Part shown: in pieces, positions 2,815-33,958 of the stretch
Layout: every line of letters begins with the position of its first letter
Position numbering within the stretch: the stretch's first letter is position 1
DNA from: an uncultured bacterium
Lineage (GTDB): Bacteria; Acidobacteriota; Thermoanaerobaculia; Multivoradales; JAHZIX01
Length of the DNA stretch: 33,958 nt
Direction of reading: 5' to 3'
NCBI GenBank assembly: GCA_965368975.1
Contig: CBDUPA010000034.1
Location: forward strand, 1 to 33,958
The notes under the pieces: model-generated
The model's database searches: none
What the model was told of the DNA's origin: nothing
Seen by the model: the letters and a program-made list of their open reading frames with translations, nothing else
Program-made: the position numbers and the translations under genes

Positions 2815-3091
2815 CAGGTCTGTGGCAGAAGTTGAGCAGCTGCCGGCGCAGCCACGCTGGCAGCTGCTTCCGTCTGGACCGCCGTGGTGAAGGCAAGAGG
2901 TGGTTGGGTTTGGGGGCCAGAAGAACGTACGTGATGGGACGATTCTGCTTGTGAGGGAGTCTCTTGAAGAGGGCGGTACGTAGAGCTAGGGGGTATGATC
3001 GCCTGCAAACCTCCACCGCGGCTAGTGCGTACTAAGAGCAGCGTGCGATGGCCTGGAGAACTCGAGAACGTCTTGGGCGAGAGGAGAGAGC

Positions 3092-4612: not shown

Positions 4613-4630
4613 ATCGATGTGCCGTAGATC
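4601..4630 (+). repeat. Perfect 15-bp tandem duplication GATGTGCCGTAGATC x2 spanning the stop codon
   Basis: 4601-4615 is identical to 4616-4630. The first copy contains the TAG stop at 4610-4612. Confidence 0.9.
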
Positions 4631-4743
4631 TTCATCGGACTCGAGGCGGGCCTGAGCCGCTTCGGAACCAGGACCGGTCGCACGGAGTCCAGGTTCCTAG
4701 ACAGGTACTGAGGGCTAGACTGGCAATGAGGGAAGGAGACGGA

Positions 4744-7646: not shown

Positions 7647-7683
7647 CTGGACGATGCTCGACAGGCCAGTCGGAGAACGTGCA

Positions 7684-10226: not shown

Positions 10227-10227
10227 G

Positions 10228-11181
10228 GTGGCGGCGGACGCGGGCTTGGCGGCGGTCTCTGGCGCCGTGCCAGCGGCGCTGCGCGAGGGAGAGCGGCTAG
10301 CGCGCGGCTACCGGCTGGCCATTCCACCGGCGCGTGCCGGCGGCCGGCTGGGGGAGCACCTCGGTCGGCGTGCCGGCAGCTCGCTGGAATTCCAGGAGCA
10401 CCGGGACTACCAGCCCGGCGACGATCTGCGCCACATCGACTGGAACGCCTTCGCACGTAGCGACCGCCTGACCGTCAAGCTCTACCGCGAGGAAGTGACG
10501 CCGCACCTGGACCTGATGCTCGACGCTTCACGCTCGATGGCGACGGAGGAAACGAAGCTGCGCGCGGCGGCCGGGCTGACGGCGCTGTTTGCCGGTGCCG
10601 CGGCGGTCAGTGGCTTCACGCGTACCGTCTGGCAGGCGGGGCAGCGCTGCACGCGCGTGCCCGGCGGTAACGGCCCGGTGGCCGGCTGGCACGTCGGCGC
10701 CGACGACGCTGGGCGTGGCGGGCTGAGCTTCGACGAGACGAGCCCTGGCCACGGCCTCGCCGCTACACCGCCGGCCTGGCGTCCGCGCGGCCTGCGCCTG
10801 CTGGTCAGTGACTTGTTGTGGCCCGAGGAGCCGGCGGCGGCGCTGCAGGCCTTGCTGCGTTTCGACGCCGCGGCGGTGATCGTGGTGCAGGTGTTGAGTC
10901 GCGCCGAGGTCGAGCCGCGGCTGGAAGGTAATCTGCAGCTCGAGGACGCCGAGACTGGCGAGCAGCGGGAGCTCTTCCTCGACGCCGAAGCCCTGTCCCG
11001 CTACCGCCGCGCCCTGGCCGCGCACCAGGAGCGCTGGCGCCGCGCTTGCCGGGATGCCGGCGCTTCCTTCGTCAGCTTGACGGCCGAGCAGATGCTCGGA
11101 CTGGAACCGTCGGTCGGTGGGCGCACGGGCGTCTGGGCGTTGCAGCCCTTGATCGCGGCGGAGGTGCTGTCACCGTCATGA
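10228..11181 (+). CDS. DUF58 domain protein (vWA-like MoxR partner)
   Basis: GSSLEFQEHRDYQPGDDLRHIDWNAFARSDRLTVKLYREE followed by LDASRSM and LLVSD. GTG start 1 nt after the previous stop. Confidence 0.9.
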   Translation: MAADAGLAAVSGAVPAALREGERLARGYRLAIPPARAGGRLGEHLGRRAGSSLEFQEHRDYQPGDDLRHIDWNAFARSDRLTVKLYREEVTPHLDLMLDASRSMATEETKLRAAAGLTALFAGAAAVSGFTRTVWQAGQRCTRVPGGNGPVAGWHVGADDAGRGGLSFDETSPGHGLAATPPAWRPRGLRLLVSDLLWPEEPAAALQALLRFDAAAVIVVQVLSRAEVEPRLEGNLQLEDAETGEQRELFLDAEALSRYRRALAAHQERWRRACRDAGASFVSLTAEQMLGLEPSVGGRTGVWALQPLIAAEVLSPS

Positions 11182-16297: not shown

Positions 16298-16541
16298 GGG
16301 AGAAGCGGGAAGTTCTTGGGAGTGTCGAGTCTGAGGTGGAGGTCGAGGTTCGAGAAGTTTGGATTCGGGAAGTGCGTCAGCGGGCTGCGGCTGTGGATTC
16401 TGGGGAGATGGAGGTCTTGTCTGCTTCTGAGGCGCGTCGGAGGATCTTCCGGCTGCCTGGGTGAATGGTATGAGTCTTCCTTGTCTCTCTTGCGATGGTC
16501 GAAAGAGTCGAGTGTGTTCAGGCCCTAGAATTTGTATCTCA

Positions 16542-19213: not shown

Positions 19214-19624
19214 CTAAAGGTTGCCGGCGAGGAATTCCGAAGGTGACAACGCAGCCACAGGACTCTTTCCGAAGTCTGCACTGTTCCGGCTAATGACAGC
19301 CTGGCAGCCGGCTTCCTCAGCTGAAACTGAGACAACAGCATCTTCGAAGTCGTCAAATCCCAAGTCCAATGCGCGCTCGAAGACAGGCGCCCCGGCAGGA
19401 GCAATCGTGAACAGTTCGAGCAGCCAGCGCAGCGCTGTCTCGGGTGGCAAGACCGAGTCGTATCGTTTCGTCAGGTAGTAGATGGTGGTGATGCCGTGAG
19501 TCGGGAGGTAGCCGGTGAGCTTTCCCTGCGCAACCAGATCCAGAATCAGGGCAGAATCTCGGAAGTGCAGTTCGCGTTTGAGTAGAACGTCGAGAACGAC
19601 GTTCAAGTCGAGCATCACCTTCAA
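19214..19624 (-). CDS. vapC: PIN-domain ribonuclease toxin (VapC-like, PIN_3 type)
   Basis: MKVMLDLNVVLDVLLKR...DFEDAVVSVSA...VISRNSADF carries the conserved acidic PIN residues. The TTG start overlaps the antitoxin stop. Confidence 0.85.
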   Translation of the reverse strand: MKVMLDLNVVLDVLLKRELHFRDSALILDLVAQGKLTGYLPTHGITTIYYLTKRYDSVLPPETALRWLLELFTIAPAGAPVFERALDLGFDDFEDAVVSVSAEEAGCQAVISRNSADFGKSPVAALSPSEFLAGNL

Positions 19625-19851
19625 CTGTGCTTCTCCAGCACGGCTTGTAGATACGCTTCCTTCGGTTCGAGATCCGAGGGTAGGATGCCGGTCAGGCGTT
19701 GTACGGCGGGGTGGAGGTCAGCGACTTCGGCAGGTCCCAGCTGTTGCAGGTACCGCGCGACAAGCTCATCTACCGTGGTTTCGTGTTGCTTTGCGAAGCG
19801 TACAGCAGATTGAATCTGCTCTTCTGGGACTTCTAGGACTAGTTTGCTCAT
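19621..19851 (-). CDS. Putative antitoxin (DUF6364-like, ribbon-helix-helix type)
   Basis: 76 aa, MSKLVLEVPEEQIQSAVRFAKQHETTVDELVARYL...HPAVQRLTGILP...YLQAVLEKH. GGAGG RBS on the minus strand (19858-19862). Lies upstream of and overlaps the PIN gene. Confidence 0.8.
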   Translation of the reverse strand: MSKLVLEVPEEQIQSAVRFAKQHETTVDELVARYLQQLGPAEVADLHPAVQRLTGILPSDLEPKEAYLQAVLEKHS

Positions 19852-19886
19852 CAGGTTCCTCCAGCGCGAGTTTACCAGAGGCCGCC

Positions 19887-22800
19887 TCAACTACTGGCCC
19901 GCGCCGCTTCCAGCTTCGCCAACCGCTCCCGCGCCTTGACGACCGCCTGATCGTCTTTCCCCCGCCCCTGACGCGCGTTCTCGAGCGCGTCCAACAGCAC
20001 CTTCTCGGCCCGCGCGAACTCCCCTCGCTGGATCAGCGCTTCGCCCAGCAGTCCCATCGATGCCACCACGTGCGAAGAATTCGGTGGAATCTGGTTGCGG
20101 GCGAAGGTAGCTAGCGCTTGCTCGAGTTGATCTTGCGCTTCGGCGGCCTTGCCCTGCTCCAACAAGGCGTGTGCCAGGTTCTTGCGCACGACGCCCAGGT
20201 TTGCGTGATCCTCGGGTAACGTTTGCGTGAAAGCCTCCAGAGCTTGGCGGAAATTGGACTCTGCACCGGCAGCGTCGCCCAGGAAATTCAGGGTGACGGC
20301 CAGGTTGTGGCTGACCGTCGCGACACGGGTGTTGTTGGGGCCTAGTAAGTCCCGCAGGATGACCAGTGCCTGCTCGTAACCCTCTTGAGCTGCTTCCAAG
20401 TCGCCGCTCTGCCGATGGACGAAAGCCAGATTGCTGAGCACGGTGGCTACCTGGAGGTGCTGCTCGCCGAAGGAGGCGCGATAGACACGGAGGGCCTCGG
20501 TGAACTGGGCTTCGGCACCTTCTAGATCGTCTTGGGCCTGTAGTGCCTGTGCCAGCGTGTTGCGGGCGGCGGCGACGCGCACGTAGTCGTCGCCCAAGAG
20601 ATCGCTCCACATTTCCAGCGCTTGTCTGGCCAGGTCTTCGGCGTCTTCGAGTTCACCTTGCTGGTGGCGCACCATGGCCAGGAGGTTCAGCGAGTCGGCG
20701 ACGTTGGGGTGCTGCTCGCCGAATAGCTCTCGCCGGTTGTTCAGGGCTTGTCGGGCGAGTTCCTCGGCCTCCTGAGAAGCGCCTTGGGCGTAGGCGAGGG
20801 CAGCCAAATTGTGGCGTACGGTGGCCAGATCCGGGTGTTCGGTCTCATAGACGTCGGCTTGAATGTCCAGGGCCTCGGTGAATACCTCCCTTGCCTGCTC
20901 CAGGTTCCCTTGCTCATCATGGAGCAAGCCCAGGTCGTTGAGCACGACGGCGACCTTGGGATGCCGGTCACCGAAGAGGTTTCGATAGAGATCCAGGCTT
21001 TGTGCGTAGGCATCCGAGGCTTCGTCGTGCTTGCCCTGGGCACGCAGCAGGCCACCTAGCTCGGCATAGCCTCCGGCAATCAGATGGTGGCGTTCACCGA
21101 GCACCTCGCCGGCCAGTTGCAGGCTCTGGTACCAGTACTCTTCGGCCATCGCGAACTTGCCCAGCCGGTGATGGGCTCGGGCCAGGCGCGAGAGGGCACG
21201 CACGCCTGTCTCAGTGTCGATCTTGCCGGTGTTGCGCAGCATGACCCAGGCAGCGCGGAAGTTCTCGAGAGCCTTGGCATACTCGCCGTCCAGAATTGCG
21301 TGGTCTCCAAGATCCAGCAGACTCTGCGCGATCTCGGGATGCGAAGCCCCATGCAACTGGCGGCGTACCACCAGCGCTTCTCGGATCAGTGGCTCGGCTT
21401 CGGCGAGCAGGCCCAGTCGCAGGTAGACGCGGCCCATGGTCGCGAGTAGCCGGGCTTGCAGCCGGGGTTGATCTCCCAGCCGGCTGCGGATGTCCAGAGC
21501 ACCGCGGTCGAGCAGCTCGCGAGCGGTCACGCGCTCGCCAAAGGTGCGGTCCGGGTCCGAAGTTTCGAACAGGCCCTCGAGAAAGTGGGTGACTTCTTCG
21601 CCGTGCTCTTGCTCCTGCAGGATCGTCGCACGCTGGACCAGCAAGGCGATAGTGAAGGCGGAGAAGGCAAGAAACGCCGCGACTGCCAGCGCCACCGGCC
21701 AACGATGTCGTCGGACGAACTTGCCGGAGCGGTACCAAAAGGTCTGGTGACGGGCGTTGACCGGGCGACCCAGCAGATAGCGATGAACGTCGGCGGAAAG
21801 CTCCTGGGCCGAGAGGTAGCGGTCGCGCGGATCCTTGCGCAGTGCCTTGGCGACGATGTCGTCCAGGTCCTTGCGCAGGTAGCGCTCCAGCTGGAGCACG
21901 TCGAGGCCCCGCTGTGCGGCGACGCCGCGAGCCCACTCTGCGGAGTGTGAACTCTCGCGTGCTCGCCTCAAGGCGCGTGAAGGAACCTCGGGAGTCTCGA
22001 AGCAGACAGCCTGGATGAAGGCGTGAGGCGAGGTCTCCGAGAGCTGAAAGGGGCGTCGGCCGGCGAGCAGAAGATAGAGCAGGGTACCGAGTGCGTAGAT
22101 GTCGCAGGCGGTTGTGATCGCCTGTCCTTGCATCTGTTCTGGGCTGGCGAATTCGGGGGTCATTGGCGCCATCGCGGTACCCGTGAGCATCTCCTTGTAG
22201 TCGCTGTCGAGTGAGCCCAGCAGCTTGGCGATGCCGAAGTCCAGCAGCTTGAGCTGGCCATCGGCCGTGACCAGAATGTTCGCTGGCTTCAGGTCGCGGT
22301 GGACGACCAGGTTCTGATGCGCGAAGTGGACGACGCTGCACACTTGGCGAAAGAGTTCCAGGCGCTGCCGTAGCGATAGGCGGCGTTGGTCACAGTAGCG
22401 GTCGATCGGTTCGCCCTCGACGTACTCGAGTACCAGGTACTGCTGGCGGTCATCGCTGAGCCCGCCGTCCAGCAGACGCGCGATCGACGGATGCTCGAGG
22501 TCCGCCAGGATCTGGCGCTCACGGCGGAAGCGCTGTTCGACTTCGGGTCGCGTCAGCTCCGGGTGTAGGATCTTGATCGCGACCTGGGTGCTGTAAGCAC
22601 CGTCGACCCGTTCCGCGCGATACACGGTACCCATGCCGCCGCGTCCGAGCACCTCGCGCACCTCGTAAGGACCGATTCTGGAATCCGTGGCCGACTCGGT
22701 TGCCGAGAGGCTCAGCACGGGACCGTCCAGGAAAGTACTGGGGTCGGCGTGTTGTTCGAGGAGTTCGCGCACCTCCTCGAGGACAGCCTGATCCGCCTGG

Positions 22801-22901
22801 CTGGATGCAAGGAACGCGGCTTGGGCTTCCGGCTCGAGTTCCAGAGCTTGGTGGAAGAGGTGGCGGGCCTCCTGCCACTGTTCGGCGTCTAACTTGGGCA
22901 T
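19887..22901 (-). CDS. Hanks-type membrane Ser/Thr protein kinase with a C-terminal TPR array
   Basis: GRGGMGTVY, VAIK, HRDLKPANIL, DFGIAK, ASPEQ. TM helix WPVALAVAAFLAFSAFTIALLV, then many 'HP.VA..LN.L' 42-aa TPRs. The N-terminal 'QWQEARHLFHQALELEP...AFL' helix typical of ECF-linked kinases sets the start at ATG 22901. Confidence 0.95.
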   Translation of the reverse strand: MPKLDAEQWQEARHLFHQALELEPEAQAAFLASSQADQAVLEEVRELLEQHADPSTFLDGPVLSLSATESATDSRIGPYEVREVLGRGGMGTVYRAERVDGAYSTQVAIKILHPELTRPEVEQRFRRERQILADLEHPSIARLLDGGLSDDRQQYLVLEYVEGEPIDRYCDQRRLSLRQRLELFRQVCSVVHFAHQNLVVHRDLKPANILVTADGQLKLLDFGIAKLLGSLDSDYKEMLTGTAMAPMTPEFASPEQMQGQAITTACDIYALGTLLYLLLAGRRPFQLSETSPHAFIQAVCFETPEVPSRALRRARESSHSAEWARGVAAQRGLDVLQLERYLRKDLDDIVAKALRKDPRDRYLSAQELSADVHRYLLGRPVNARHQTFWYRSGKFVRRHRWPVALAVAAFLAFSAFTIALLVQRATILQEQEHGEEVTHFLEGLFETSDPDRTFGERVTARELLDRGALDIRSRLGDQPRLQARLLATMGRVYLRLGLLAEAEPLIREALVVRRQLHGASHPEIAQSLLDLGDHAILDGEYAKALENFRAAWVMLRNTGKIDTETGVRALSRLARAHHRLGKFAMAEEYWYQSLQLAGEVLGERHHLIAGGYAELGGLLRAQGKHDEASDAYAQSLDLYRNLFGDRHPKVAVVLNDLGLLHDEQGNLEQAREVFTEALDIQADVYETEHPDLATVRHNLAALAYAQGASQEAEELARQALNNRRELFGEQHPNVADSLNLLAMVRHQQGELEDAEDLARQALEMWSDLLGDDYVRVAAARNTLAQALQAQDDLEGAEAQFTEALRVYRASFGEQHLQVATVLSNLAFVHRQSGDLEAAQEGYEQALVILRDLLGPNNTRVATVSHNLAVTLNFLGDAAGAESNFRQALEAFTQTLPEDHANLGVVRKNLAHALLEQGKAAEAQDQLEQALATFARNQIPPNSSHVVASMGLLGEALIQRGEFARAEKVLLDALENARQGRGKDDQAVVKARERLAKLEAARASS

Positions 22902-22915
22902 TCTCTTGCCATCCT

Positions 22916-22947
22916 GTGATCCGATCGGTACGCGTCTTGCGCCAACC
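22916..22947 (+). promoter_or_regulatory. Putative ECF sigma promoter, copy 1 (GTGATCC-N16-GCGCCAACC)
   Basis: GTGATCC 22916-22922, 16-nt spacer, GCGCCAACC 22939-22947. Upstream of CDS 23071. Confidence 0.7.
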
Positions 22948-23070
22948 CTATCGCACAGCTGGGAACTGTGGCTGAGTTCGCGTTCCAAGGTCGATGTGAT
23001 GAGGAACCCAGCAGGGCACTCCGCGAGCGGTGTCCGGGTTCCGTCAGGTCTCGAAAGGAGCACCGATAGC

Positions 23071-24672
23071 ATGTGCAGCGCTACTCTACGAAGTTCTTCT
23101 CCTCACCTCCGTTTGATTGTACGGACCCTCGCGGGTCTCTTCCTGGCTTCAATGACGTCCACTGCCTCAGCACAGATCACCAAGGTGGTCGGGTGGGGGC
23201 AGACCGAGGTGACGATCACGGCGGCTGAGTTGGGACTCGATCATTTGATGCCACTGGCCCAGACAGTCTCGGTCGCCAGTTCGCACGGCTCGTTGCAACT
23301 CGACGGCACGGATCTGGTCTACGCGCCGTCTTCCCGCTTCTGGCAGATTGGTTTCGACACATTCCAGGTGTCCGTGGGTGGCAAGGCGCCCAGGGATGTC
23401 TTCCTGATCGCCAACTTGCGCGAAGAGCCTCTGGCCGGGGATGCCTTCCAGGGTTGTGTCTTGGGCGGAGACTGGACCTGGACAGGGGATCTCAGCGAGC
23501 TTCAGCTGCAGTCCTCGAGCGTGACCAACGACTGTTTTCTGAGAGTCCAAGCCGGCGGCACGGGTATCGGGGTTCGCACGCGCCCGCAAGCCCTGACCGG
23601 ACCGGGTGGTGGCAACACGTCCATCTCTCTGGATCCTGGAATCGGTGGTGGTACCGAACTCCCCTTCGGTCTACCCGACGGGATGGAGGTGCCTATTGTG
23701 GCTGGCGTGACGCAGGATGGCAGGGTGGTCTTCGAGTTGGTGCTGACCGGCTCACAGCTACTTGCCCGAGCCTACCGGGCTGATGGATCGGCTGTCACTT
23801 CGTCGCCTCTGGCGCTCAGTGATGAAGCTCAACACCTCGAGATGGACTGGTGGTTCGCCAGCGCATCGGGAGCCCGTGACGGCGGTGTGATGCTGTCGCG
23901 CAACGGTGTCTTCGAGACAGCCGTGACCGGTGTCGACAACTTCGGCCTGCTGGGGTTGCCATGGTCCTGGGAATTTGGGCTGCTGGGGCCGACCAACGGA
24001 GGCCAAGGAGTCTTGGCCTTGCTCGATCCCGAGGTTTGGGTCAGTCCACGGCAACCGATGTTCGAACCCATCTTTGCCGACAGCGCGGCGGGTTTCTCGC
24101 TGAGTCGCTGGAGCGATCTGATCAACCCGGACAAGATCATGGTTTCGACCAAGAATTCCACGCAAAACCCTCAGTTCCTGCTCGGTGTTTCCAATGCGCG
24201 GCAGGTTGCACTGGTCGACGATTCACCGGTGGCCGAACGTCACTTCCGTGCCCGCTTCTCGCTCGGTGTGGATCAAATGGCGCCGGGTACGGGCGTCATG
24301 ACGATCTTCGCGGCTCTAGGACAATCCAGGGAGAAGCCCGTGTTCAGTGTCCAGTTGCGATTCAACCAGAACCTGGGGGCCTACCAAGTGCGCACTCGGA
24401 CACGTCACGGAGCTGGCGAGGTCGTCTCGCCCTGGGCTAGCGCTCCGCCGGCCGTGGCTACCCTCGAGGTGTCCGTGCAGTGGTGGGCGGAGACACAGGC
24501 TGCGGCAGCTGATGGCGGTCTGCGCCTCGAGGTGGGAGGGGCCGAGCTCGTGGAGTTGGGGCAGCTCACGAGCACAACCCTCCGGGTCGAGGAGGCTTGG
24601 ATCGGCGCTGTGCTGATACCCAAGGGTTGGCAGGGTGAGCTGCTCTTCGACGATCTGTGCGCCTGGCGCTAG
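23071..24672 (+). CDS. Secreted hypothetical protein, paralog A (small cadherin-like segment plus two related beta-rich domains)
   Basis: AAGGAG RBS before ATG 23071. Signal peptide ending in ASA-Q. 'HGSL...LVYAP...FW.IGFDTF' is Big_9-like. Two internal 'WW....GA.DGG..L' units. Ends DDLCAWR. Confidence 0.8.
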   Translation: MCSATLRSSSPHLRLIVRTLAGLFLASMTSTASAQITKVVGWGQTEVTITAAELGLDHLMPLAQTVSVASSHGSLQLDGTDLVYAPSSRFWQIGFDTFQVSVGGKAPRDVFLIANLREEPLAGDAFQGCVLGGDWTWTGDLSELQLQSSSVTNDCFLRVQAGGTGIGVRTRPQALTGPGGGNTSISLDPGIGGGTELPFGLPDGMEVPIVAGVTQDGRVVFELVLTGSQLLARAYRADGSAVTSSPLALSDEAQHLEMDWWFASASGARDGGVMLSRNGVFETAVTGVDNFGLLGLPWSWEFGLLGPTNGGQGVLALLDPEVWVSPRQPMFEPIFADSAAGFSLSRWSDLINPDKIMVSTKNSTQNPQFLLGVSNARQVALVDDSPVAERHFRARFSLGVDQMAPGTGVMTIFAALGQSREKPVFSVQLRFNQNLGAYQVRTRTRHGAGEVVSPWASAPPAVATLEVSVQWWAETQAAAADGGLRLEVGGAELVELGQLTSTTLRVEEAWIGAVLIPKGWQGELLFDDLCAWR

Positions 24673-24680
24673 CCCTATGG

Positions 24681-25286
24681 ATGAGTACGTCCATGTTGAC
24701 TGATCTTCCACGCGACGAGGACGTTACCGGGCTCCTGCAGCTATGGAGCCGTGACGGTGACCGGCGGGCACTCGATCTCCTCATGCCACTGGTTTCGCAG
24801 GAGTTGCAACGGATGGCCCTGGGGTTCTTCCGCCACGAGCGACCCGATCACACGCTGCAGCCCACAGCGCTGGTCAACGAGGTGTACCTACGCCTCGTGG
24901 ACCGGCGCAGGGCGACTTGGCAGGATCGGGTTCACTTTCTGAGCTTTGCCGCCCGTACGATGAGGCGCGTGCTGGTCGACCACTCGCGCAAGCACAAGGC
25001 GCTCAAGCGCGGGGCAGGAGCACAGCAGGTGGCTCTGCCGGAAGGGGCCGTCGTCACCTGGCAGCGCGAAATCGACTACCTGGCTCTGGACGAGGCCTTG
25101 ACGTCCCTGGCGCAGCTCGATGCTCGTCAAGCCAGGATCGTCGAGTTGCACTACTTTGCGGGTCTCACCATCGAGGAGCTTGCGACTGTGATCGAAATCG
25201 GTACCGCAACGGTGAAGCGCGATCTAGCGATGGGCCGTGCTTGGTTGCGACGCGCACTCGAGCCGATACCGGACTCCGCCGGCTAG
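24681..25286 (+). CDS. ECF RNA polymerase sigma factor, TIGR02999/ECF43-like (copy 1)
   Basis: DVTGLLQLWS...ERPDHTLQPTALVNEVYLRL...WQDRVHF...MRRVLVDH.R...KRG...YFAGLT.EE.A...TATVKRD...RAWL. Start is ATG 24681 or 24693. Confidence 0.92.
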   Translation: MSTSMLTDLPRDEDVTGLLQLWSRDGDRRALDLLMPLVSQELQRMALGFFRHERPDHTLQPTALVNEVYLRLVDRRRATWQDRVHFLSFAARTMRRVLVDHSRKHKALKRGAGAQQVALPEGAVVTWQREIDYLALDEALTSLAQLDARQARIVELHYFAGLTIEELATVIEIGTATVKRDLAMGRAWLRRALEPIPDSAG

Positions 25287-25332
25287 ACCTCTGCGCTGCG
25301 CCCCGCAGCTGGCGGCTCTTTCTTCCGCTACC

Positions 25333-25364
25333 GTGATCCGGTTTTCATGCGTCTTGCGCCAACC
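25333..25364 (+). promoter_or_regulatory. Putative ECF sigma promoter, copy 2
   Basis: GTGATCC 25333-25339, 16-nt spacer, GCGCCAACC 25356-25364. Upstream of CDS 25480. Confidence 0.7.
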
Positions 25365-25479
25365 TCAACGCAGCGCCTTGAACTCGTAGAATCAAACAAG
25401 GTAGTTGCCATTGACATCCAGTCCCTGGGGGAGATGGCTTTCTCGGGGCTCACTTCATCTCGAAAGGAGAGCCTGAATC

Positions 25480-27000
25480 ATGCGCAGTACCCTGTTCTTC
25501 GAATCGCCCCCTCGTACCTCGGGCCTCGGACCATGGCTGATTGGGATGTGTCTCATTCTGCTACTGACTCCCATGACGATGGCTCAGACGGTCCAAGTCG
25601 TGCCCTGGGCGCAGCCGCTGATACTCATCTCGCTGAATCAGGAGAAGCTGGAGGCTGGAGTCGAAGCTGCCGCCTACCCCTTGACCTGGACCGATCCTCG
25701 GAGAGGTCAGTTGAAGCAAAGCGGGGGCGGTCTGGTCTACATGCCGGATGAGGAGTTCTGGGAGGTGGGCTTTGACAGCTTTCACCTTCGCGAGTCCAGT
25801 ACTTCCAAGCAGTACGAGACCGTCTTCCTGATCGCTGGTCTGCGAGAAGAGCCACAGGCCCTAGGCGCCTTGGAGGGCTGTGTGCTGCACCCGGATTGGT
25901 TCTTGCTGGGTGATGCGCAGGTGGTGCAGAGGCCCGTTGCCAAGAGTTCCACATGCCTGTTCGAAATGACGCTTGGTGCCGATGTGCCGACGACGCTGGT
26001 CGGTCCCAAGGCCCAGACCGGGCCGGGCGGCGGCAACACATCGATCTCACTGGATCCGGGGACTCATCGGTCGCCTGGCTCCTTCGAGCTCTTACCGGGG
26101 ATGGAGACTCCCGTGGTGGCTGCGATTACGTCCCAGGGAGAAACCGTCTTCGAGCTGGTCCTGCGGGAGGGACTGGAGTTGTTCGTACGCGCGTACCACA
26201 GTGACGGCACCGTCGTAATGTCGAAGCCAGTGCAGACAGCTCAGGTCCGTCAGGATCTCGAGCTGGAGTGGTGGTTCGCGAGCACTGAAGGAGCGAGCGA
26301 TGGTGGTCTGCTCCTGGTGCGCGACGGTGTGCTGGAGACCGCAGTCATCGGAATCGACAACTTCGGTTTGCTGGGTCGCGCCTGGAACTGGCACTTTGGC
26401 TTGCTGGCTCCGACCGTGGGAGCGAGCGGTACGCTCGCCTTGGAGCAACCGGAGGTCTGGACCAGTCCCCGTCAGCCGGTCTATCAGCCGCTGTTCGCCA
26501 ACGGCACCGACAACGTCTACAGCGCTCAGTCCGCGGCGCTGCGCGATGCCTCGCCCAGTGCGGAGCGTCACTACCGGGCCAGGTTCTTCGTTGGCTTCGA
26601 GGGTGTGCGAAGTGAAGCGGGAGGCGCCTGGACCCTGTTCCGAGCCGACGACCCGGGTCGCGGCCTGGTGCCGTTCGATGTGCAGGTTCGCAGCAGTCTG
26701 TTTCGAGGCCTCGAGGTTCGTGCCCGCGCTTGGAATGGCTCGATGATGGTCGAAACGCCGTGGGAGCCCCTGCCCGAGGGGCGGTCGAGTCACGACGTTG
26801 CCGTTCAATGGTGGGCGCAGTCGGACGCTCAGACGCCCAACGGCGGTCTGCGGTTGTGGGTCGAAGGCGCCCTGACCGGAGGCGTGTCGGGGCTGGCCAA
26901 TGCCTCAGTGCGGGTCGAGGAGACCTATCTCGGTGTCTTGTCGGCCCCCCTGGGCGGTGGAGGAGAGCTGGTCATTCACGACTTCTTCGCTTGGCGCTAG
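25480..27000 (+). CDS. Secreted hypothetical protein, paralog B
   Basis: GAAAGGAG RBS and a signal peptide ending in TMA-Q. Shares with paralog A the blocks VFLIA.LREEP, TGPGGGNTSISLDPG, DNFGLLG..W.W.FGLL, PEVW.SPRQP, AERH.RARF and VQWWA, and the AWR C-terminus. Confidence 0.85.
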   Translation: MRSTLFFESPPRTSGLGPWLIGMCLILLLTPMTMAQTVQVVPWAQPLILISLNQEKLEAGVEAAAYPLTWTDPRRGQLKQSGGGLVYMPDEEFWEVGFDSFHLRESSTSKQYETVFLIAGLREEPQALGALEGCVLHPDWFLLGDAQVVQRPVAKSSTCLFEMTLGADVPTTLVGPKAQTGPGGGNTSISLDPGTHRSPGSFELLPGMETPVVAAITSQGETVFELVLREGLELFVRAYHSDGTVVMSKPVQTAQVRQDLELEWWFASTEGASDGGLLLVRDGVLETAVIGIDNFGLLGRAWNWHFGLLAPTVGASGTLALEQPEVWTSPRQPVYQPLFANGTDNVYSAQSAALRDASPSAERHYRARFFVGFEGVRSEAGGAWTLFRADDPGRGLVPFDVQVRSSLFRGLEVRARAWNGSMMVETPWEPLPEGRSSHDVAVQWWAQSDAQTPNGGLRLWVEGALTGGVSGLANASVRVEETYLGVLSAPLGGGGELVIHDFFAWR

Positions 27001-27014
27001 CGGTTTCGAATAGC

Positions 27015-27617
27015 ATGGTGACCATGGGAGAACGCTCGCAAGGGCACGACATCACAGCGCTGCTGCAGCAGTGGAGCCGTGGCGGAAACCGGGAGTCACT
27101 CGACCTCTTGATACCTCTCGTCTCTCGGGAGCTGCACCGCATTGCCCGCGGCTTCCTGGGTAACGAACGCGCGGACCACACGCTGCAGCCGACAGCGTTG
27201 GTCAACGAGGTCTACATGCGCCTGGTCGACCGACGCAAGGCGACGTGGCAGGATCGCGTCCATTTCCTGAGCTTCGCGGCGCGCACCATGCGCCGGATTC
27301 TGGTCGATCACTCGCGCAAGCAGAAAGCGCAGAAGCGAGGGGCAGGTGCCCAGCAAGTGACCCTGGATGAGTCCTCGGCTTTCGAACTGCAGCGAGGGGT
27401 CGACTACCTGGCCCTGGATGAAGCGTTGTCGGGCCTGGCGGAGATCGACTCTCGCCAGGCCCGCATCATCGAGCTGCGGTACTTCGCGGGTCTGACCATC
27501 GAGGAGATCGCGGCCGTGGTCGAGGTCGGCACCGCGACCGTCAAGCGGGACTTGGCCATGGCCCGGGCCTGGTTGCGGCGCGAGCTGGAGCCCGATCCCA
27601 CGGCCGCTTCCAGCTAA
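27015..27617 (+). CDS. ECF RNA polymerase sigma factor, TIGR02999/ECF43-like (copy 2)
   Basis: Same motifs as copy 1, about 75% identical over the core by manual alignment. Start is ATG 27015 or 27024. Confidence 0.92.
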   Translation: MVTMGERSQGHDITALLQQWSRGGNRESLDLLIPLVSRELHRIARGFLGNERADHTLQPTALVNEVYMRLVDRRKATWQDRVHFLSFAARTMRRILVDHSRKQKAQKRGAGAQQVTLDESSAFELQRGVDYLALDEALSGLAEIDSRQARIIELRYFAGLTIEEIAAVVEVGTATVKRDLAMARAWLRRELEPDPTAASS

Positions 27618-27629
27618 AGTCGTCTTCGG

Positions 27630-27661
27630 TTGAGCCGTTTTTTTCGGCGTTTGCGCCAACC
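27630..27661 (+). promoter_or_regulatory. Putative ECF sigma promoter, copy 3 (TTGAGCC variant)
   Basis: TTGAGCC 27630-27636, 16-nt spacer, GCGCCAACC 27653-27661. Followed by a short terminator-bounded non-coding stretch. Confidence 0.65.
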
Positions 27662-27665
27662 TGGG

Positions 27666-27791
27666 CAGACGTACGTTTCACAGACTTGCGTACGTTCACA
27701 GACCCGTAGAGACAGCGGTGGCATGCACGACCGCCGCGATCTCTCCTTTCGTGGCGCTGGCCCAGTACCCAACGGGCCGCGCCCTTTTTTT
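27666..27791 (+). ncRNA. Candidate ECF-dependent small RNA (~125 nt) with an anti-Shine-Dalgarno linker
   Basis: Bounded by promoter copy 3 and an intrinsic terminator. Contains the direct repeat CGTACGTT(T)CACAGAC x2, a hairpin at 27715-27737 and the linker CTCTCCTTTCG (27741-27751). The 5' end is estimated. Confidence 0.45.
27753..27791 (+). terminator. Rho-independent terminator
   Basis: Stem GGCGC(T)GGCCC / GGGCCGCGCC with a 10-nt loop, followed by T7 at 27785-27791. Confidence 0.8.
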
Positions 27792-27855
27792 GTTCGGCCT
27801 GTCGTTGCGCAACTCAGCGCGCGAGTAACTACGTGGAGCGAGTGGCGCGGCTACC

Positions 27856-27887
27856 GTGATCCCGTTTTCCCGCACCCTGCGCCAACC
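27856..27887 (+). promoter_or_regulatory. Putative ECF sigma promoter, copy 4
   Basis: GTGATCC 27856-27862, 16-nt spacer, GCGCCAACC 27879-27887. Lies after the terminator and 54 nt upstream of ATG 27942. Confidence 0.7.
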
Positions 27888-27941
27888 CTGCCAGAAGTCG
27901 ACCGCCTCCGGTCATGGATGAAACATGCAGGGAGCTCTACC

Positions 27942-30900
27942 ATGAGATGTCTTCGAGACCTGACGACCTGTCCTCTACTCACCAATCTACGATCGGCCAC
28001 GATGAGGTGCTTGCTGATTCTGGGGCTGCTCTTGCTGCCCTTGACGGCCACTGCTCAGAAGGAAACCGATCCCGGCAATGACGCTACCGTGGTCAGCCAC
28101 ACCTTGCCGACCCTGATGGAGTGTGGCTCCAAGCAGGTCGTTTCGGTGACGGTACAGAACACCGGTAAGTCCACCTGGAGTGGCAAGGCGGCCTACGGTC
28201 TCATGGGCGTGAACAATACGGCGTTCGAGGCTGAAGGCACGGCGCAAGGTGCGCAGCTGCCGGCCGACGTCGATGTCGCGCCCGGGCAGAGCTACACCTT
28301 CGAGCTCGACTTCGTCGTGCCTTCGGCGCCCGGCAACCACACTTCGCAATGGCAGATGACCCAGGGGGGGACAAGCCAGTTCGGCGGCATCGCGTCGGAG
28401 ACGACCAAGGTTGCCTGCCAGATCTCCGAGACCGATGCCGCTGAGGTGGTGAGCCATACGATTCCAGCCTTCATGGAGTGCGGCACCACCCAGGACGTCT
28501 CGATCACCTTCCAGAACACCGGTACGTCGACGTGGCGTCCGGAGCACCTGTATGTGCTGCGCTCGCCCGGCAATCAAGATCCGATGTCGAGCAAGACGGA
28601 GTGGTCGCTGCCCGCCGGGACCGCCGTGTCACCTGGGCAGAGCTACACCTTCCAGCTGCCACTGACCGCGCCGGCGGTGGCTGGCAGCTACAGCACGGAC
28701 TGGAAGATGTTGCACAAGCGGCTGCGCTGGTTCGGGGAAACCGCGCTCAGCACGGTGAACGTGTTGTGTGTCGGTGGTGAGGTGCCGGACGCGGCGGTGG
28801 TCGTCGTCGATCCGCCCAACAACTACGGCACCTGGGTCAAGGAGGAATGCGGCACCGAAACGTCGATCTTCGTGACCCTGCAGAATACGGGCAAGGCCCT
28901 ATGGGGCGCCGACACCTTCCTGGCCGCCACCGGCGGCTCGGATCCCTACCGCACCGACGCCGATCCGCGCGTGCCGTTGCCGCACAGCGTGTTCCCGGGC
29001 GAAACCGTGACCGTCGAGGTACCGCTCAGCATGCCGCCGGACGTCCAGGTCGCGCAGACCAGCGAGTGGCAGCTGGTGCGAGGCGCCAGCGAGTGGTTCG
29101 GTGAGATCGCCACCAAGCAGCTACTCGTGCGCTGCCAGCTCAACGAGAGCGACGATGCGCGCGTGGTATCGCATACCTTCCCCGACCTGATGGAGTGCGG
29201 CAGCACGCAGCGGATCAGCGTGACCATGGAGAACACCGGTACCAGCCGCTGGCGCAAGGATCTGAAGATGCGCTTGGGGGACCCGGGCAACAAGGATCCC
29301 TTCAAGGTGACGCATCGGGTCGACCTTCCCGCCGGTCTCGAGATTGGACCGGGCGGCGCGCACACCTTCGAGTTCGACATCAAGGCACCCGATGCAGCGG
29401 GCACCTACACCACCGATTGGCGCATGGTCCACGAGTGGGTGCGCTGGTTTGGTGAGACCGCGGCCAAGCAGATCGACGTGACGTGCAGCGACTACGGCGT
29501 CGAGTTCCTGCAACCACGCGCGCAAGTGCTCGCGGACGGCGGGAAATTCGACTGGGGCGTTCTGCACGAGGGCGAGGCACCCCGGCCCTTCACCTTCCGC
29601 GTCGCCGCGCCCGACAACTTCAAGGGCGAGCTCTACAACCTGCGTGTGGTCAGCGAGGAAGGGCCGGTGGCGGTCTACTTCGGCCAGCTGAGCAGCGGCA
29701 GTGGCAGCCTGCAGACCGGCGCCGAGGTGCCGGCTGAGCAGGGTCTGGATATCGGCGGCACGCTAGCGGTGAAGCCGGAGATCAAGGAGCTCAAGGCCGG
29801 CGAGCAAGTGGCCTTCCGGGCGGTGATCGCCTTTGATCACAGCCTCGGAGAGTCCTTCGAGTTCGAGATCGTTGGCCTGGCGCAGAAGGCCAGCTGCAAC
29901 GGCACGGACAGCTGGAGCTTCGTGTTCGAGGACTATCCGGGACCGTTCAACGAGGTGATTCCCGAGGAGCAGTTGCCGCGGCAGCTCGCCTACCGCGGTC
30001 GCATCACCAACAACGACGGCGCCCAGTGCCTGGAGATTCCGGAGAGCGGCATCAATGTCACCGTGGTCCAGCGACCCTTCGGCGTCAATACCGACCTGGA
30101 GGTGTTCGGCGGTCCGACCATCGTGCTGCAGCCGGGTGAGAGCTATGTCTTCCGGGTCCTGATCAACGCCACCGTGTCCGCCGAGAGTGGTGAGTACTCG
30201 GCCAACATCGGCGTCAGTCCATCGGGCACCTCGGTGGTCGACACACTCAACATCTCGGGTACCTTCGAGATCCAGGGGCCGGACCTGTCACTCGACAACG
30301 TCAGTGTTCGTTTGCTGTCCTCCGGTATCTCGGTAGGGCATTTCGGTATCTTCACGATCGATCCCGTAGACGCCTCGACCAACATCGATTTCGAGGTGCG
30401 CAACGACAATCCGGACGACATGCACGTCGAGGCCATGTCGGCCAGCATCTCCGGCCCAGCCGCCAGTGGTTTGAGCTACAACCCGACGCCAGTCTCGGCG
30501 GTGGTCCCGGCAGGGTTCCCGTCGGTGTTCGGCGGCCAGCTCCAGGTACTGAGTAGCGCGGTGCCCGGCGATTTCACGATTCACGTCAACTTCCGCGTCA
30601 CCGATGGTGACTTTACACCGGAGTTCGACGAGCTCTTCTCCTTCGACATCCAGGGCACCTTGACTGCCTGCGGTGGCGGAGGCAACTGTGGTCCCATCGT
30701 CAGTGTCGAGGACCAGAACGGCAACAGCGTGCGTGGTACCCACCGCCTCAACCTGGCCAACGAGGGTACCCACGATCTGGTGTTCAAGATCTTCAACATC
30801 GGGGACGAAGAGCTGAGCGTCAACCCGGCGTTGCAGCTGTCCGGCGACGGGCGCTTCAGCGTCCAGTCGTCACCGTCACCAACGACCGTCCCGCCGGATG

Positions 30901-33900
30901 GCGCACAGACTTCCAACTTCACGCTGCGCTTCAACGCTGACGGCACCGGTGTCAATGACACCTTCGCCACCAACGTGACGATCAATGGCAATGGTGCCAA
31001 CACCCCGTACACCTTCACGCTGGAGGTGACGACACGACCACCGATTCCGCTGGTCGTGGAGGTGATCGGTTTCGTGACGGTCGACAACCAAGTGGATCTC
31101 GGCACGCACGAGCAGCTCCCGTTGCTGCCGGTCATCCGCATCACGAACCCGACATCGGACTTCTACTACGTCAAGAGCTTCCGCACCCTGCAGTCGCAGG
31201 GGGGACCGCTGGAGTGGACCTGGGAGTCGCCGGTACCTGCGAGTTCGGAGAACAGCAGCGCCTGGCGAATCGACAAGGATGGTGGCCAGCTGCACGCCGG
31301 GGGCAAGATCGACCTCAACGGCGATCCCGGTGACGTCAACGGCACCTACACCTTCAACTTCTCGTTCGAGTTCAACGACGGACGCTACGGTACCTACAGT
31401 ACCTATAACCTGGCGATCAAGGGCGAACTGGACGGGGTCTACAACCCTGCCATAGACGCGCCGGTAATCGACTGCGAGGATCCCGACAACGTTTGCGTCT
31501 CCAATTTCTGCGGTGCCGTGCAGTCGATCTTCGACGATCAACCGGTAGCTGCCTCGGTCTGCGTCGCCTCGGCGCTGGCTACCTACTGGGGTTGCCTGGG
31601 TTGCGGTTCCTCCAACACGGCCTGCTGGGCGATCTGTGGAGTCGGCATCATCGGCTCCCTGGGTTGCGGTCTGGTCGCGGACGATCTGATCGAAGACCTG
31701 GCGCAGGCGGTGATCGACACAAGAGCCTGCTACTGCGACACCTTCGGCGAGTTCTGCGAGGAGACGTACTACATCGGCTACGAGGTGACGAACCTACCGG
31801 TTGGTACAGCGGTCAATGTACGGTCCAGGTGTCGAACCACGGCTGGGCTCGACATCCAGACCGTGGAGACGGTCAGCCTCAGTAACTCGCTGGACTTCGA
31901 CCTGATCCGTTGCCCCAAGTCGGCGATCTACGAGTTGTGGACCGACCCGGTGCAGGTACTGCCCGGCAACACCCCGTACCGCTGCACCCTGGCCAACCCG
32001 CGCCCAGGTGACCGGCCGGAGATCCCGGAGTACAACGGCCTTCTCGACACCCACTTCACGGGAGTCTTCGACTGCGGCTGCACCGACCCGACCGGCTGCG
32101 GCCAGTTCTACACGCTGGTTGGCAGTGCGCAAGACCTACAGCCAGGTGACGCGATCACCGTGGTGGCCAACCTGGAAGGAGATCATCCGACACAGATCTC
32201 CGCCACGGTAACCGTGACTCAGAATGGCCAGTTCCAGTTCTTGATCCCGGTGCCGGAGTCCGACTCCTACGTGCTGACGATCGAGAACAAGAACGACTAC
32301 CCGCAGTGTACCGTGGAGCCGACCGGCAACCCGATCAGCGGTCCCGGCAACGTGGTGGACATCGCGCGCCTGAGCTGCGACTCGACGCGGCCCAACGTGC
32401 GCATCCTGGTCCCAGCGGACGGTGACACGGTGCAGCCGAATCCGTCCACGGGAGCGATTCTGGTACAAGCCGTCGCTGGCGACGCCAACGGCATCCGCCA
32501 TGTGATTTTCTACGAGGATGGCGTGCCGATCGGCACGGCGACTTCGGCGGGCAATGTGTACGAGATCCAGTGGGTCCCGAGCGGTTCGGGAACGCGTACT
32601 CTGCAAGCACTGGCCGAGAACATACCCGGGGTCACGACCTTCTCTGACCCGGTCAGTGTTACGGTCACCGGCACCGTTGCCTGCGACAATGACACCCAGC
32701 CGCCCACCATCGTCCGGGTCTTCCCGGCTGCAGGTGAAGCGGCGCCGCAGGGCCTGGGTGGTTCTCTGACCCTGGAAGCCGAGGTCGTCGACGACACCGG
32801 CATGAACCACGTGGACTTCTACCTGGACGGCAACAAGGTGACCGTCTTTGGCAATGGTCCGCTGTTCCTGTTCACCGCACCGCAGGTCAGCCTGGGGGCG
32901 CACACCCTACGGGTGGTTGCCGTCGACGTCTGCGGCAAGCCACGCGAGATCGCTCAGTACGACTTCACCGTGGTCGAGTCGGATCCGACCCTGGCTGCCG
33001 GTGCGCTGAACGTTGCCGACTGCTCGATCCTCTACGGCTTTGCCAGCGACATCAACCACACTAATTCGGTGTTGGTCGAGTTCTACAAGGGTGGGCCGCG
33101 CGGCAGCGGTACGCTGGTCGGACAGGACCTGGCCAACGGCTCGTGCACCGGGCTACCCGGGGATCCCAACCAGTGCTTCTCGCTGTCGACGCCGGCAGCG
33201 CTGAAGACCGGCTTCCCGGAGACCGTCTACGCCCACGCTCGCGATATCGATACCCAGGGTCAGCCGACCGGAGCGTGGCCGCAACTGCTGCTGTCGCCCA
33301 AGACCATCACCTGCGAAGACTCCGGCGGTACCGGCAATCCTCCGCCGATTCCCGCTGGGGTCTCGGCCAGCGACGGTGCCTACACCGACCGTGTACGGGT
33401 GACCTGGAACGCATCCTCGGGCGCCTCCGCCTACGAGGTCTACCGCAACAGCGTCAACAACAGTTCCACCGCGACGATGATCGAATCGGACGCATCGACG
33501 ACGCTCTACGACGACATGGACGTGCAATCCGGGCCGCTCTACTACTACTGGCTCAAGGCCAGGAACGGCGATGGTTCGAGTGGCTTCAGCACCGTGAACA
33601 CGGGCTATGCCAGTACGGTGACGGTCAACAATCACCTGCCAGATGGCACGCTGGACGTAGCGGACTGCGATCACGTCGCTGGTTGGGTACGTGACGCGGA
33701 CTACACCGGTCGCACGCAGGCCCACATCTACCGTGACGGTCCGGCGGGTGGCGGTGGCACGGTGGTGGCGACGATCTGGGCGGACCTGACTCGCCCGGGT
33801 CTACCCTTCCCAGACCAGGACCATGGCTTCGATTGGTCTGTGCCGGCGGGGTCGATCCCGCACGGTACGCCGATCTACGTCTACGGCCTGAACGTCGACT

Positions 33901-33958
33901 CCAACGGTGACTTCGACGGCGACAACACGCTGCTCAACGGCTCTCCGATGAGCTTCAA
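27942..33958 (+). CDS. Giant secreted multidomain protein, >2005 aa, 3' end outside the window: 4x NBR1-like Ig, several ASH/choice-of-anchor-D-like Ig, a Cys-rich domain, 2x Big_7-like Ig, FN3 and two 'G.LD.ADC..V.GW..D' repeats
   Basis: I translated frame +3 by hand and found no stop from 27942 to the window end. GGAG RBS 7 nt upstream. Signal peptide ...MRCLLILGLLLLPLTATA-Q (alternative starts 27918 and 28002). Absent from the ORF track because it has no stop within the window. Confidence 0.9.
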   Translation, partial: MRCLRDLTTCPLLTNLRSATMRCLLILGLLLLPLTATAQKETDPGNDATVVSHTLPTLMECGSKQVVSVTVQNTGKSTWSGKAAYGLMGVNNTAFEAEGTAQGAQLPADVDVAPGQSYTFELDFVVPSAPGNHTSQWQMTQGGTSQFGGIASETTKVACQISETDAAEVVSHTIPAFMECGTTQDVSITFQNTGTSTWRPEHLYVLRSPGNQDPMSSKTEWSLPAGTAVSPGQSYTFQLPLTAPAVAGSYSTDWKMLHKRLRWFGETALSTVNVLCVGGEVPDAAVVVVDPPNNYGTWVKEECGTETSIFVTLQNTGKALWGADTFLAATGGSDPYRTDADPRVPLPHSVFPGETVTVEVPLSMPPDVQVAQTSEWQLVRGASEWFGEIATKQLLVRCQLNESDDARVVSHTFPDLMECGSTQRISVTMENTGTSRWRKDLKMRLGDPGNKDPFKVTHRVDLPAGLEIGPGGAHTFEFDIKAPDAAGTYTTDWRMVHEWVRWFGETAAKQIDVTCSDYGVEFLQPRAQVLADGGKFDWGVLHEGEAPRPFTFRVAAPDNFKGELYNLRVVSEEGPVAVYFGQLSSGSGSLQTGAEVPAEQGLDIGGTLAVKPEIKELKAGEQVAFRAVIAFDHSLGESFEFEIVGLAQKASCNGTDSWSFVFEDYPGPFNEVIPEEQLPRQLAYRGRITNNDGAQCLEIPESGINVTVVQRPFGVNTDLEVFGGPTIVLQPGESYVFRVLINATVSAESGEYSANIGVSPSGTSVVDTLNISGTFEIQGPDLSLDNVSVRLLSSGISVGHFGIFTIDPVDASTNIDFEVRNDNPDDMHVEAMSASISGPAASGLSYNPTPVSAVVPAGFPSVFGGQLQVLSSAVPGDFTIHVNFRVTDGDFTPEFDELFSFDIQGTLTACGGGGNCGPIVSVEDQNGNSVRGTHRLNLANEGTHDLVFKIFNIGDEELSVNPALQLSGDGRFSVQSSPSPTTVPPDGAQTSNFTLRFNADGTGVNDTFATNVTINGNGANTPYTFTLEVTTRPPIPLVVEVIGFVTVDNQVDLGTHEQLPLLPVIRITNPTSDFYYVKSFRTLQSQGGPLEWTWESPVPASSENSSAWRIDKDGGQLHAGGKIDLNGDPGDVNGTYTFNFSFEFNDGRYGTYSTYNLAIKGELDGVYNPAIDAPVIDCEDPDNVCVSNFCGAVQSIFDDQPVAASVCVASALATYWGCLGCGSSNTACWAICGVGIIGSLGCGLVADDLIEDLAQAVIDTRACYCDTFGEFCEETYYIGYEVTNLPVGTAVNVRSRCRTTAGLDIQTVETVSLSNSLDFDLIRCPKSAIYELWTDPVQVLPGNTPYRCTLANPRPGDRPEIPEYNGLLDTHFTGVFDCGCTDPTGCGQFYTLVGSAQDLQPGDAITVVANLEGDHPTQISATVTVTQNGQFQFLIPVPESDSYVLTIENKNDYPQCTVEPTGNPISGPGNVVDIARLSCDSTRPNVRILVPADGDTVQPNPSTGAILVQAVAGDANGIRHVIFYEDGVPIGTATSAGNVYEIQWVPSGSGTRTLQALAENIPGVTTFSDPVSVTVTGTVACDNDTQPPTIVRVFPAAGEAAPQGLGGSLTLEAEVVDDTGMNHVDFYLDGNKVTVFGNGPLFLFTAPQVSLGAHTLRVVAVDVCGKPREIAQYDFTVVESDPTLAAGALNVADCSILYGFASDINHTNSVLVEFYKGGPRGSGTLVGQDLANGSCTGLPGDPNQCFSLSTPAALKTGFPETVYAHARDIDTQGQPTGAWPQLLLSPKTITCEDSGGTGNPPPIPAGVSASDGAYTDRVRVTWNASSGASAYEVYRNSVNNSSTATMIESDASTTLYDDMDVQSGPLYYYWLKARNGDGSSGFSTVNTGYASTVTVNNHLPDGTLDVADCDHVAGWVRDADYTGRTQAHIYRDGPAGGGGTVVATIWADLTRPGLPFPDQDHGFDWSVPAGSIPHGTPIYVYGLNVDSNGDFDGDNTLLNGSPMSF

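Follow-up and report, generated by a model that had tools for sequence, protein, structure and literature searches.

The window analysed here is the whole of contig C34 (33,958 bases) in the genome of an uncultured bacterium of the Acidobacteriota (7.13 Mb in 59 contigs, 99.3% complete), and from position 19887 to the contig end it probably encodes a phosphorylation-switched module of extracytoplasmic function (ECF) sigma factors of the ECF43/PknS-EcfK kind, in an unusual layout. A receptor kinase gene on the minus strand is divergent from a plus-strand series of secreted paralog A, sigma 1, secreted paralog B, sigma 2 and a giant open reading frame (ORF), listed in Table 1; the ORFs of this island match the account given in an earlier reading of the same DNA (the original prediction). 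Phosphorylation-activated ECF sigma factors have been studied in three proteobacteria and are most numerous in phyla like that of the window. To our knowledge, a target gene or promoter is known for almost no such sigma factor in those phyla. The genome holds about 20 sigma/kinase modules, this locus among them, and the distinctive features of the locus are the layout, a conserved putative promoter with a small regulon, a duplicated sigma factor and a new family of cargo.

The kinase matched Pkinase in Pfam (E 2.6e-47) and contains nine TPR_12 units (E 1.6e-107) of tetratricopeptide repeats (TPRs). Its catalytic motifs GRGGMG, VAIK, HRDLKPAN, DFG and SPE are intact, and a single 22-residue hydrophobic stretch, WPVALAVAAFLAFSAFTIALLV, preceded by RRHR and recognized by eye, lies between the kinase domain and the TPRs (nucleotides ~21636..21701). 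Read from the sequence in this way, the protein appears to be bitopic with its TPR region outside the membrane, and the proposal of a Hanks kinase with TPRs, divergent from two sigma genes and apparently in the membrane, was borne out. The closest solved relative found by phmmer was PDB 9EED (E 8.3e-48), in an alignment that begins at residue 4 of both proteins. This structure is PknS(1-364), and PMC13147305 describes PknS as having a conserved pre-kinase segment of ~80 residues, a transmembrane helix and periplasmic TPRs. Because the alignment starts at residue 4, the pre-kinase segment is common to PknS and the window kinase, and identification of the latter as a PknS-like TPR receptor kinase is supported.

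Both sigma factors have the ECF architecture of sigma2 and sigma4 only, seen as family-level matches to PF07638 (E 1.9e-49 for sigma 1 and 1e-52 for sigma 2) and TIGR02999 (190.5 and 207 bits, respectively, with a cut-off of 126.15). They are 70% identical, and HTLQPTALVNE is present in each. Canonical ECF sigma factors carry DxxDxxQE in region 2.2. When LVNE was anchored by motif on its xxQE part, Q and A occupied the two Asp positions with T between them. According to PMC13147305 and PMC8999054, ECF43 proteins have uncharged residues there, with Thr in 88% of sequences and the consensus QTTA (QATE in EcfK, STTA in EcfP), and the Thr is phosphorylated by a neighbouring Hanks kinase, which provides the charge for binding β′. 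QPTA fits this consensus, and the predicted assignment of both proteins to the kinase-associated ECF43 type, which lacks the acidic DAED motif, is supported. In PDB searches, phmmer gave no match to sigma 1 at E<=0.01, and a five-sequence sigma profile aligned mainly over region 4, so that the DAED position was not covered. No ORF of the island matched an anti-sigma family in Pfam or NCBIfam, in agreement with the original remark that an anti-sigma gene is lacking.

The units of the island share a promoter-like motif. A repeat family of 38 nucleotides (nt) has four copies, at 22910, 25327, 27624 and 27850, all intergenic and on the plus strand, and their core, TGATCC-N16-TGCGCCAAC, is present before every unit of the island. 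A pattern scan of the genome returned 7 matches, compared with 0 for the reversed control. The strict form, with a spacing of 16 and T before GCGCCAAC, occurs at 8 genome sites, i.e., four in the window, two on contig C24, and one each on C17 and C21. Relaxing the spacing to 15 or 17, or allowing one mismatch, added 12 further matches versus 5 in the reversed control; these, including a C22 site with a spacing of 17, were set aside as probable noise. Alignment of 7 sites revealed two invariant blocks separated by a free spacer, which looks like the -35/-10 pair of a sigma-dependent promoter. Region 4 (GTATVKRDLAM.RAWLRR) was nearly identical in the alignment of sigma 1, sigma 2 and the sigma factor of a related genome, G003, and this would fit a single shared -35 element. 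The gaps between paralog and sigma genes are only 8 nt (A and sigma 1) and 14 nt (B and sigma 2), so each pair probably forms one operon. With one motif before both of these operons, a candidate RNA and the giant gene, the proposal that the sigma factors switch on the outputs of the island fits.

What most strongly suggests that the motif is an autoregulated promoter of this sigma clade is its single occurrence in G003, a genome of the same family and another genus. Contig C23 of G003 encodes the same triad of a kinase and a paralog-sigma pair, with identities of 59% for the kinase over its full length and 33% for the paralog, and has TGATCC-N16-TCGCCAAC between the kinase start and the paralog. 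Throughout the 8 Mb of G003, TGATCC-N16-KCGCCAAC matched only once, before the paralog-sigma operon, with 0 matches for the control. As this sole site stands at the paralog, the paralog would be the ancestral target and the minimal ancestral regulon would be one gene. In the phylogenetic tree, sigma 1 and sigma 2 are sisters (95/84) within a 100/100 clade that includes the G003 sigma factor, which indicates that the cassette was duplicated in the lineage of the window. The linkage of kinase, secreted protein and ECF sigma factor is therefore conserved in another genus, and the refuting outcome named with the original prediction, a linkage kept in no other genome, did not occur. The motif, with 8 sites in 7.1 Mb and retention across genera, amounts to a checkable prediction of a promoter.

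Based on these observations, we propose that the bitopic kinase would sense something via its TPR region, autophosphorylate, and then phosphorylate the Thr of QPTA in region 2.2, i.e., T62 of sigma 1 and T60 of sigma 2; residues of the linker may be phosphorylated too. The phosphate would introduce the negative charge that the DAED-less sigma factors need to bind the β′ subunit of RNA polymerase, and the active sigma factors would then read TGATCC-N16-TGCGCCAAC. With the motif before their own operons (A-sigma 1 and B-sigma 2), positive autoregulation would result, and further targets would include a short terminated RNA and giant 1 in the window, paralog C and giant 2 on the adjoining contig, and two distant units. 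The primary and ancestral target would be the secreted protein with Ig-, lectin- and lyase-like domains (Ig, immunoglobulin). Tandem duplication of the paralog-sigma cassette would have left one kinase serving two near-identical sigma factors, and the locus may offer a natural example in which a single kinase faces a pair of recently duplicated sigma factors.

The mechanism is already published for two systems, EcfK/PknS and EcfP/PknT, the latter reportedly studied originally by Iyer et al. 2020. The likeness to EcfK/PknS of Xanthomonas citri comprises a Hanks kinase with a pre-kinase extension and, as the window sequence reads, a bitopic form with one transmembrane helix and extracytoplasmic TPRs, a sigma factor without the acidic DxxD and with Thr in its place (QATE versus QPTA here), the lack of an anti-sigma factor, and an output of envelope or secreted functions (PMC13147305; PDB 9EED). 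In the same paper, PknS has three TPRs and 833 amino acids (aa), whereas the kinase of the window is 1004 aa long, with ~9 TPR_12 units, and the X. citri sigma factor adjoins its kinase and controls a type VI secretion system, of which no gene is present in the window. Unlike EcfK/PknS, the kinase of the window is divergent, each sigma gene is second behind a gene for a secreted protein, there are two sigma factors, and phosphorylation is predicted. The predicted working of the window system would also be like that of EcfP/PknT of Vibrio parahaemolyticus, which has an intrinsically inactive ECF43 sigma factor that is activated by phosphorylation of a Thr in region 2.2; EcfP/PknT differs in its STTA motif, its polymyxin signal and the resistance regulon that forms its output, as stated in PMC8999054 and PMC13147305.

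Table 1. Features of the putative signalling island in the window (nucleotide positions; regions within proteins in residues)
Feature	Position	Strand	Remarks
Hanks Ser/Thr receptor kinase, 1004 aa	19887..22901	-	start placed at ATG 22901
Regions of the kinase			PknS-like N-terminal extension ~1-78; kinase domain ~79-366; putative transmembrane helix ~401-422; TPR ~480-1000
Motif copy 1	22917..22946	+	16 nt from kinase start codon; ends 124 nt before paralog A ATG
Secreted paralog A, 533 aa	23071..24672	+	AAGGAG before ATG
Regions of paralog A			leader; Big_9-like Ig ~35-114; concanavalin A (ConA)-like lectin ~115-332; polysaccharide-lyase-like jelly roll ~332-533
ECF sigma 1 (ECF43-type), Thr62 in QPTA	~24681..25286	+	alternative starts GTG 24657, ATG 24693
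Motif copy 2	25334..25363	+	ends 116 nt before paralog B ATG
Secreted paralog B, 506 aa	25480..27000	+	without the ~30-aa insert of paralog A
ECF sigma 2 (ECF43-type), Thr60 in QPTA	~27015..27617	+	PF07638, TIGR02999
Motif copy 3	27631..27660	+	TGAGCC replaces TGATCC; 14 nt after sigma 2 stop
Candidate ~125-nt RNA or 3' untranslated region of sigma 2 operon	27668..27793	+	three hairpins, terminator-like end
Motif copy 4	27857..27886	+	ends 115 nt before giant ATG
Giant secreted Ig-repeat protein 1, at least 1985 aa	28002..33956	+	ORF open at contig end

The short unit behind motif copy 3 had been called a small RNA, and here the promoter-like site and a terminator hairpin were found. Folding of 133 nt from 27668 gave three hairpins at -52 kcal/mol (z -3.07, with 1 of 200 shuffles as good). 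The last of them (27753..27783) is G+C-rich and followed by U7 (27785..27791), so that it looks like an intrinsic terminator, and the 5' end of the candidate contains the direct repeat CGTACGTT(T)CACAGAC twice (27670..27705), forming both arms of the first hairpin. A consensus terminator scan did not catch the hairpin at 27753; it reported one site, inside paralog B, and stayed below the shuffle mean. Rfam gave no match at the gathering threshold for the whole window and none at E<=1 for 27600-28010, nor was a homologue found in 20 relatives, and the label of a small RNA is to that extent uncorroborated. The odds appear about even between a sigma-dependent RNA of ~125 nt and the mere 3' untranslated region and terminator of the paralog B-sigma 2 operon, with copy 3 as a weak or dead promoter. 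In favour of the latter, the hairpin with U7 is the only convincing terminator after sigma 2, copy 3 is mismatched in its -35 block, and the candidate has neither conservation in those relatives nor an Rfam family; on the other side, copy 3 is perfect in its -10 block and in its spacing, and a structured, terminated transcript of 125 nt would follow it.

The two secreted paralogs, which had likewise been predicted, are 42% identical, and by eye both have an N-terminal hydrophobic leader ending in A-x-A/Q. Neither matched Pfam or NCBIfam, and a profile of the family found no match among PDB chain sequences. A structural model built from 36 family members reached a pLDDT (predicted local distance difference test) of 89.2 and a pTM (predicted template modelling score) of 0.85; a first model from 5 sequences was poor (pLDDT 53.9) and was not used. 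For the Ig domain, Big_9 matched 6 of the 36 members and Atlas leads scored 0.94. The middle domain (residues 118-325) superposed on 1fv2 with Z 14.8, that is, on the lectin-like N-terminal half of the binding domain in clostridial neurotoxins (Z ~14.7); in the model this is a generic ConA-like fold with no sign of toxicity. Residues 332-533 superposed on the PL20 glucuronan lyase 2zzj with Z 18.1 (root-mean-square deviation 2.6 over 190 aligned residues), followed by the PL36 lyase Aly36B (6kcv, Z 18.0) and the PL14 lyases 5gmt (Z 17.5) and 3a0n (Z 17.0). The fold is thus like that of beta-jelly-roll polysaccharide lyases, with deviations of 2.6-3.1 over 190-194 residues, and it differs from them in an identity of 7-12% and in having no conserved catalytic set visible. 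Lectin and GH16 domains scored only 2-3 Z below the lyases, so the fold is no more than a lead towards lyase activity, and one family member had a weak match to PF14099 (E 0.0058). Across the 36-sequence alignment, the only invariant columns are G73, D96, W261, G303, G482 and G512; it contains no invariant His, Tyr, Arg or Lys that could form a catalytic set, and HYRARF is a majority motif only. We read the paralogs as secreted glycan-binding proteins that possibly cleave glycans as well, and the modelling gives a rare unannotated secreted family a predicted fold and a likely glycan-related role.

A word-based search for this family returned 5 proteins, 3 of them from the same genome, while a profile run against 1.84 billion representatives gave 1874 matches at E<=0.001, most of them limited to the C-terminal domain of ~200 residues, which recurs in many large proteins; about 40 were full-length among the 150 matches listed. 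Some match was present in 23 of 40 relatives, with full-length paralogs at three loci in two genomes. Paralog A alone retrieved no related locus from genome contigs, an 8-sequence alignment retrieved one locus (L023) from genome contigs and none from metagenome contigs, and across 401 genomes of the phylum, with 3 candidates scored per genome, no further full-length paralog was found at E<=1e-25. A more distant paralog on contig C2 of G003 is divergent from a sigma-kinase operon, and the third full-length locus, on contig C47 of genome G001, has neighbours without a kinase or sigma gene.

These data bear on whether the paralogs belong to the sensor itself, i.e., bind or cut an extracellular or periplasmic glycan of the uronic-acid type and hand on to the kinase TPRs either the product or themselves, in a positive feedback; the original prediction named the paralogs as possible ligands or co-receptors of the kinase. 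The paralog is the one gene kept with sigma factor and kinase in three gene orders (the window, G003:C23 and G003:C2), and in G003 the sole copy of the motif has this gene alone behind it. It combines lectin-like and lyase-like domains, TPRs are protein-binding modules, and it evolves faster (33% identity) than the kinase (59%). Nevertheless, we regard a sensory role as unlikely, if worth keeping in mind, given that the first gene of an autoregulated sigma operon, or a divergent target, would look equally like a plain output, that the G001 paralog lacks a neighbouring kinase or sigma gene, and that the invariant columns hold only G, W and D. The more elaborate form of this idea is a glycan-sensing circuit, in which the secreted protein, once induced by the sigma factor, would set free or display a uronic-acid oligosaccharide for detection by the long TPR ectodomain, with the output feeding back, and we consider it distinctly improbable. 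If true, such a circuit would parallel, with a Ser/Thr kinase, the trans-envelope ECF signalling known from polysaccharide-utilisation loci; in this lineage it would have been duplicated and would have come to include giant surface proteins, a small RNA and peptides resembling bacteriocins. We found no paper linking ECF43 with lyase- or lectin-like cargo, and the contact sensing or antagonism suggested originally is speculation.

Returning to the phosphorylation-switched ECF43 module that we favour, several points weigh against it. A search for sequencing runs returned none. We take PF07638 and TIGR02999 to be models of ECF43; our literature search found no paper equating them, and the ECF43 assignment rests on these models, the region 2.2 motif and the kinase linkage. 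Many ECF sigma factors use a CGT-type -10, which the -10 block GCGCCAAC does not resemble, and the motif is absent at the second G003 locus and at the G001 locus, where kinase and sigma genes are missing from the neighbourhood as well. The genome contains 20 TIGR02999 matches over the cut-off and 90 Pkinase matches at E<=1e-10, so that cross-talk or another cognate kinase is possible. All 20 sigma factors have T or S at the QxTA position, and the HTLQPTAL motif, correctly reported for both sigma factors, therefore does not single them out. In 13 of the 20, a kinase domain is encoded less than 500 nt downstream on the same strand, whereas the kinase domain match of the window lies 2.1 kb from sigma 1 and 4.4 kb from sigma 2; the divergent kinase, the secreted-protein gene before each sigma gene and the ratio of one kinase to two sigma factors are exceptional for the genome, and because sigma 1 and sigma 2 depart from the common layout, their pairing with this kinase rests on the synteny with G003. 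Lastly, a T51A variant of EcfK is still functional according to PMC13147305, so there may be other sites besides the Thr of QPTA, which need not itself be essential.

The abundance of kinase domains, the missing sigma-then-kinase order and the functional T51A variant would all suit an explanation in which the divergent kinase is not the activator, or not the sole one, and the sigma factors respond to another Hanks kinase or are controlled mainly through their own transcription. We judge this quite unlikely, since the arrangement of kinase and paralog-sigma operon, together with the kinase itself, is kept in another genus with the promoter-like site abutting the kinase start, and the window kinase has the PknS-type N-terminal extension. 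Least convincing is the explanation that neither sigma 1 nor sigma 2 reads the motif, which would be the site of another regulator or ECF sigma factor, or a remnant of tandem duplication. In its favour, copies 1 and 2 arose with the cassette duplication (repeat families D1-D4) and another ECF43-type sigma gene lies 2.3 kb from the C17 copy. Against it, the motif also stands ahead of unrelated genes, namely those for the giants, for the C21 peptides and for the giant of C17; conservation is confined to two blocks at a fixed spacing; G003, where there is no duplication, retains the motif; and the C17 sigma factor belongs to another clade than the two window sigma factors, from which it also differs in region 4.

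Giant 1 matched N_BRCA1_IG four times, Big_7 twice and fn3 in Pfam, and also has a leader, beta-rich regions and a Cys-rich region (about 31350-32400) without a family, and C-terminal repeats of ~110 aa. The Ig domains of the original prediction were thereby recovered; the toxin-like domain was not, as searches of Pfam (E<=1, on three pieces), Atlas and PDB sequences found none. Contig C24 opens within an ORF, and at the DNA level the repeats of this ORF share ~90% identity with the final 330 nt of the window; the window end matched nothing else in the genome. The domain order of this ORF completes giant 1, in parallel with giant 2, and C24 continues with a motif copy, paralog C (48% identical to paralog A), another motif copy and giant 2, which has 2124 aa and is 58% identical to giant 1. 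The island, which had been described as self-contained, thus very probably runs on into C24, the join being unproven, and the motif recurs at two further sites in the genome. At the C-termini of both giants, the ~110-aa repeat (ADCxHIAGWxRDAD...GFDW..P) alternates with fn3 (window 33629..33958; locus L008, 1..1298 and 8523..9806), and the near-identical copies of this repeat probably caused the assembly break.

Homologues of the central region of the giant were found in G017, a genome of another family, in three copies, two of which were examined. The homologue on contig C34 of G017 is divergent from a PF07638 ECF43-type sigma gene and a TPR kinase gene, and another copy stands beside a histidine kinase. 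A 2021-aa bacterial alpha-2-macroglobulin (MG2, A2M, bMG10) is encoded a few kb from the former locus (L025, 3839..9904, plus strand).

At the distant motif sites, we observed two further kinds of genes. On C21 (L010), the copy at 7990 precedes two small paralogous ORFs on the minus strand (7193..7396 and 7659..7877; 67 and ~72 aa) that share an MKKR...LRKDTLLA leader, a GG site and an identical Cys-rich C-terminus and are followed by an alpha/beta hydrolase; these peptides look like precursors of bacteriocins or of ribosomally synthesized and post-translationally modified peptides. On C17 (L009), an ECF43-type sigma-kinase(TPR) operon occupies 3052..6905 on the minus strand, and behind the motif copy lies the gene for a secreted repeat protein that exceeds 2906 aa and has MG2-like pieces (9204..17999, plus strand).

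Within the window, the kinase gene is followed immediately downstream, on its own strand, by genes for a PIN_3 toxin (E 6.4e-17) and a DUF6364 protein (E 2.1e-11), probably a toxin-antitoxin pair (19214..19890, minus strand), with the start of the longest DUF6364 ORF 1 nt from the kinase stop. Just upstream of this pair is a gene for a 733-aa STAND-type ATPase (AAA_16) fused to MalT-like TPRs (16542..18743, minus strand). Farther away, an ABC ATPase gene and three large ORFs without a Pfam match are interspersed in a MoxR (AAA_3)-DUF58-BatA-VWA string (4726..16297, plus strand). The ORF at 3..1328 (plus strand), cut by the contig start, encodes another secreted protein of the Ig and ConA type, namely a Big_9/Cadherin-like protein with Laminin_G_3 in its C-terminal part.

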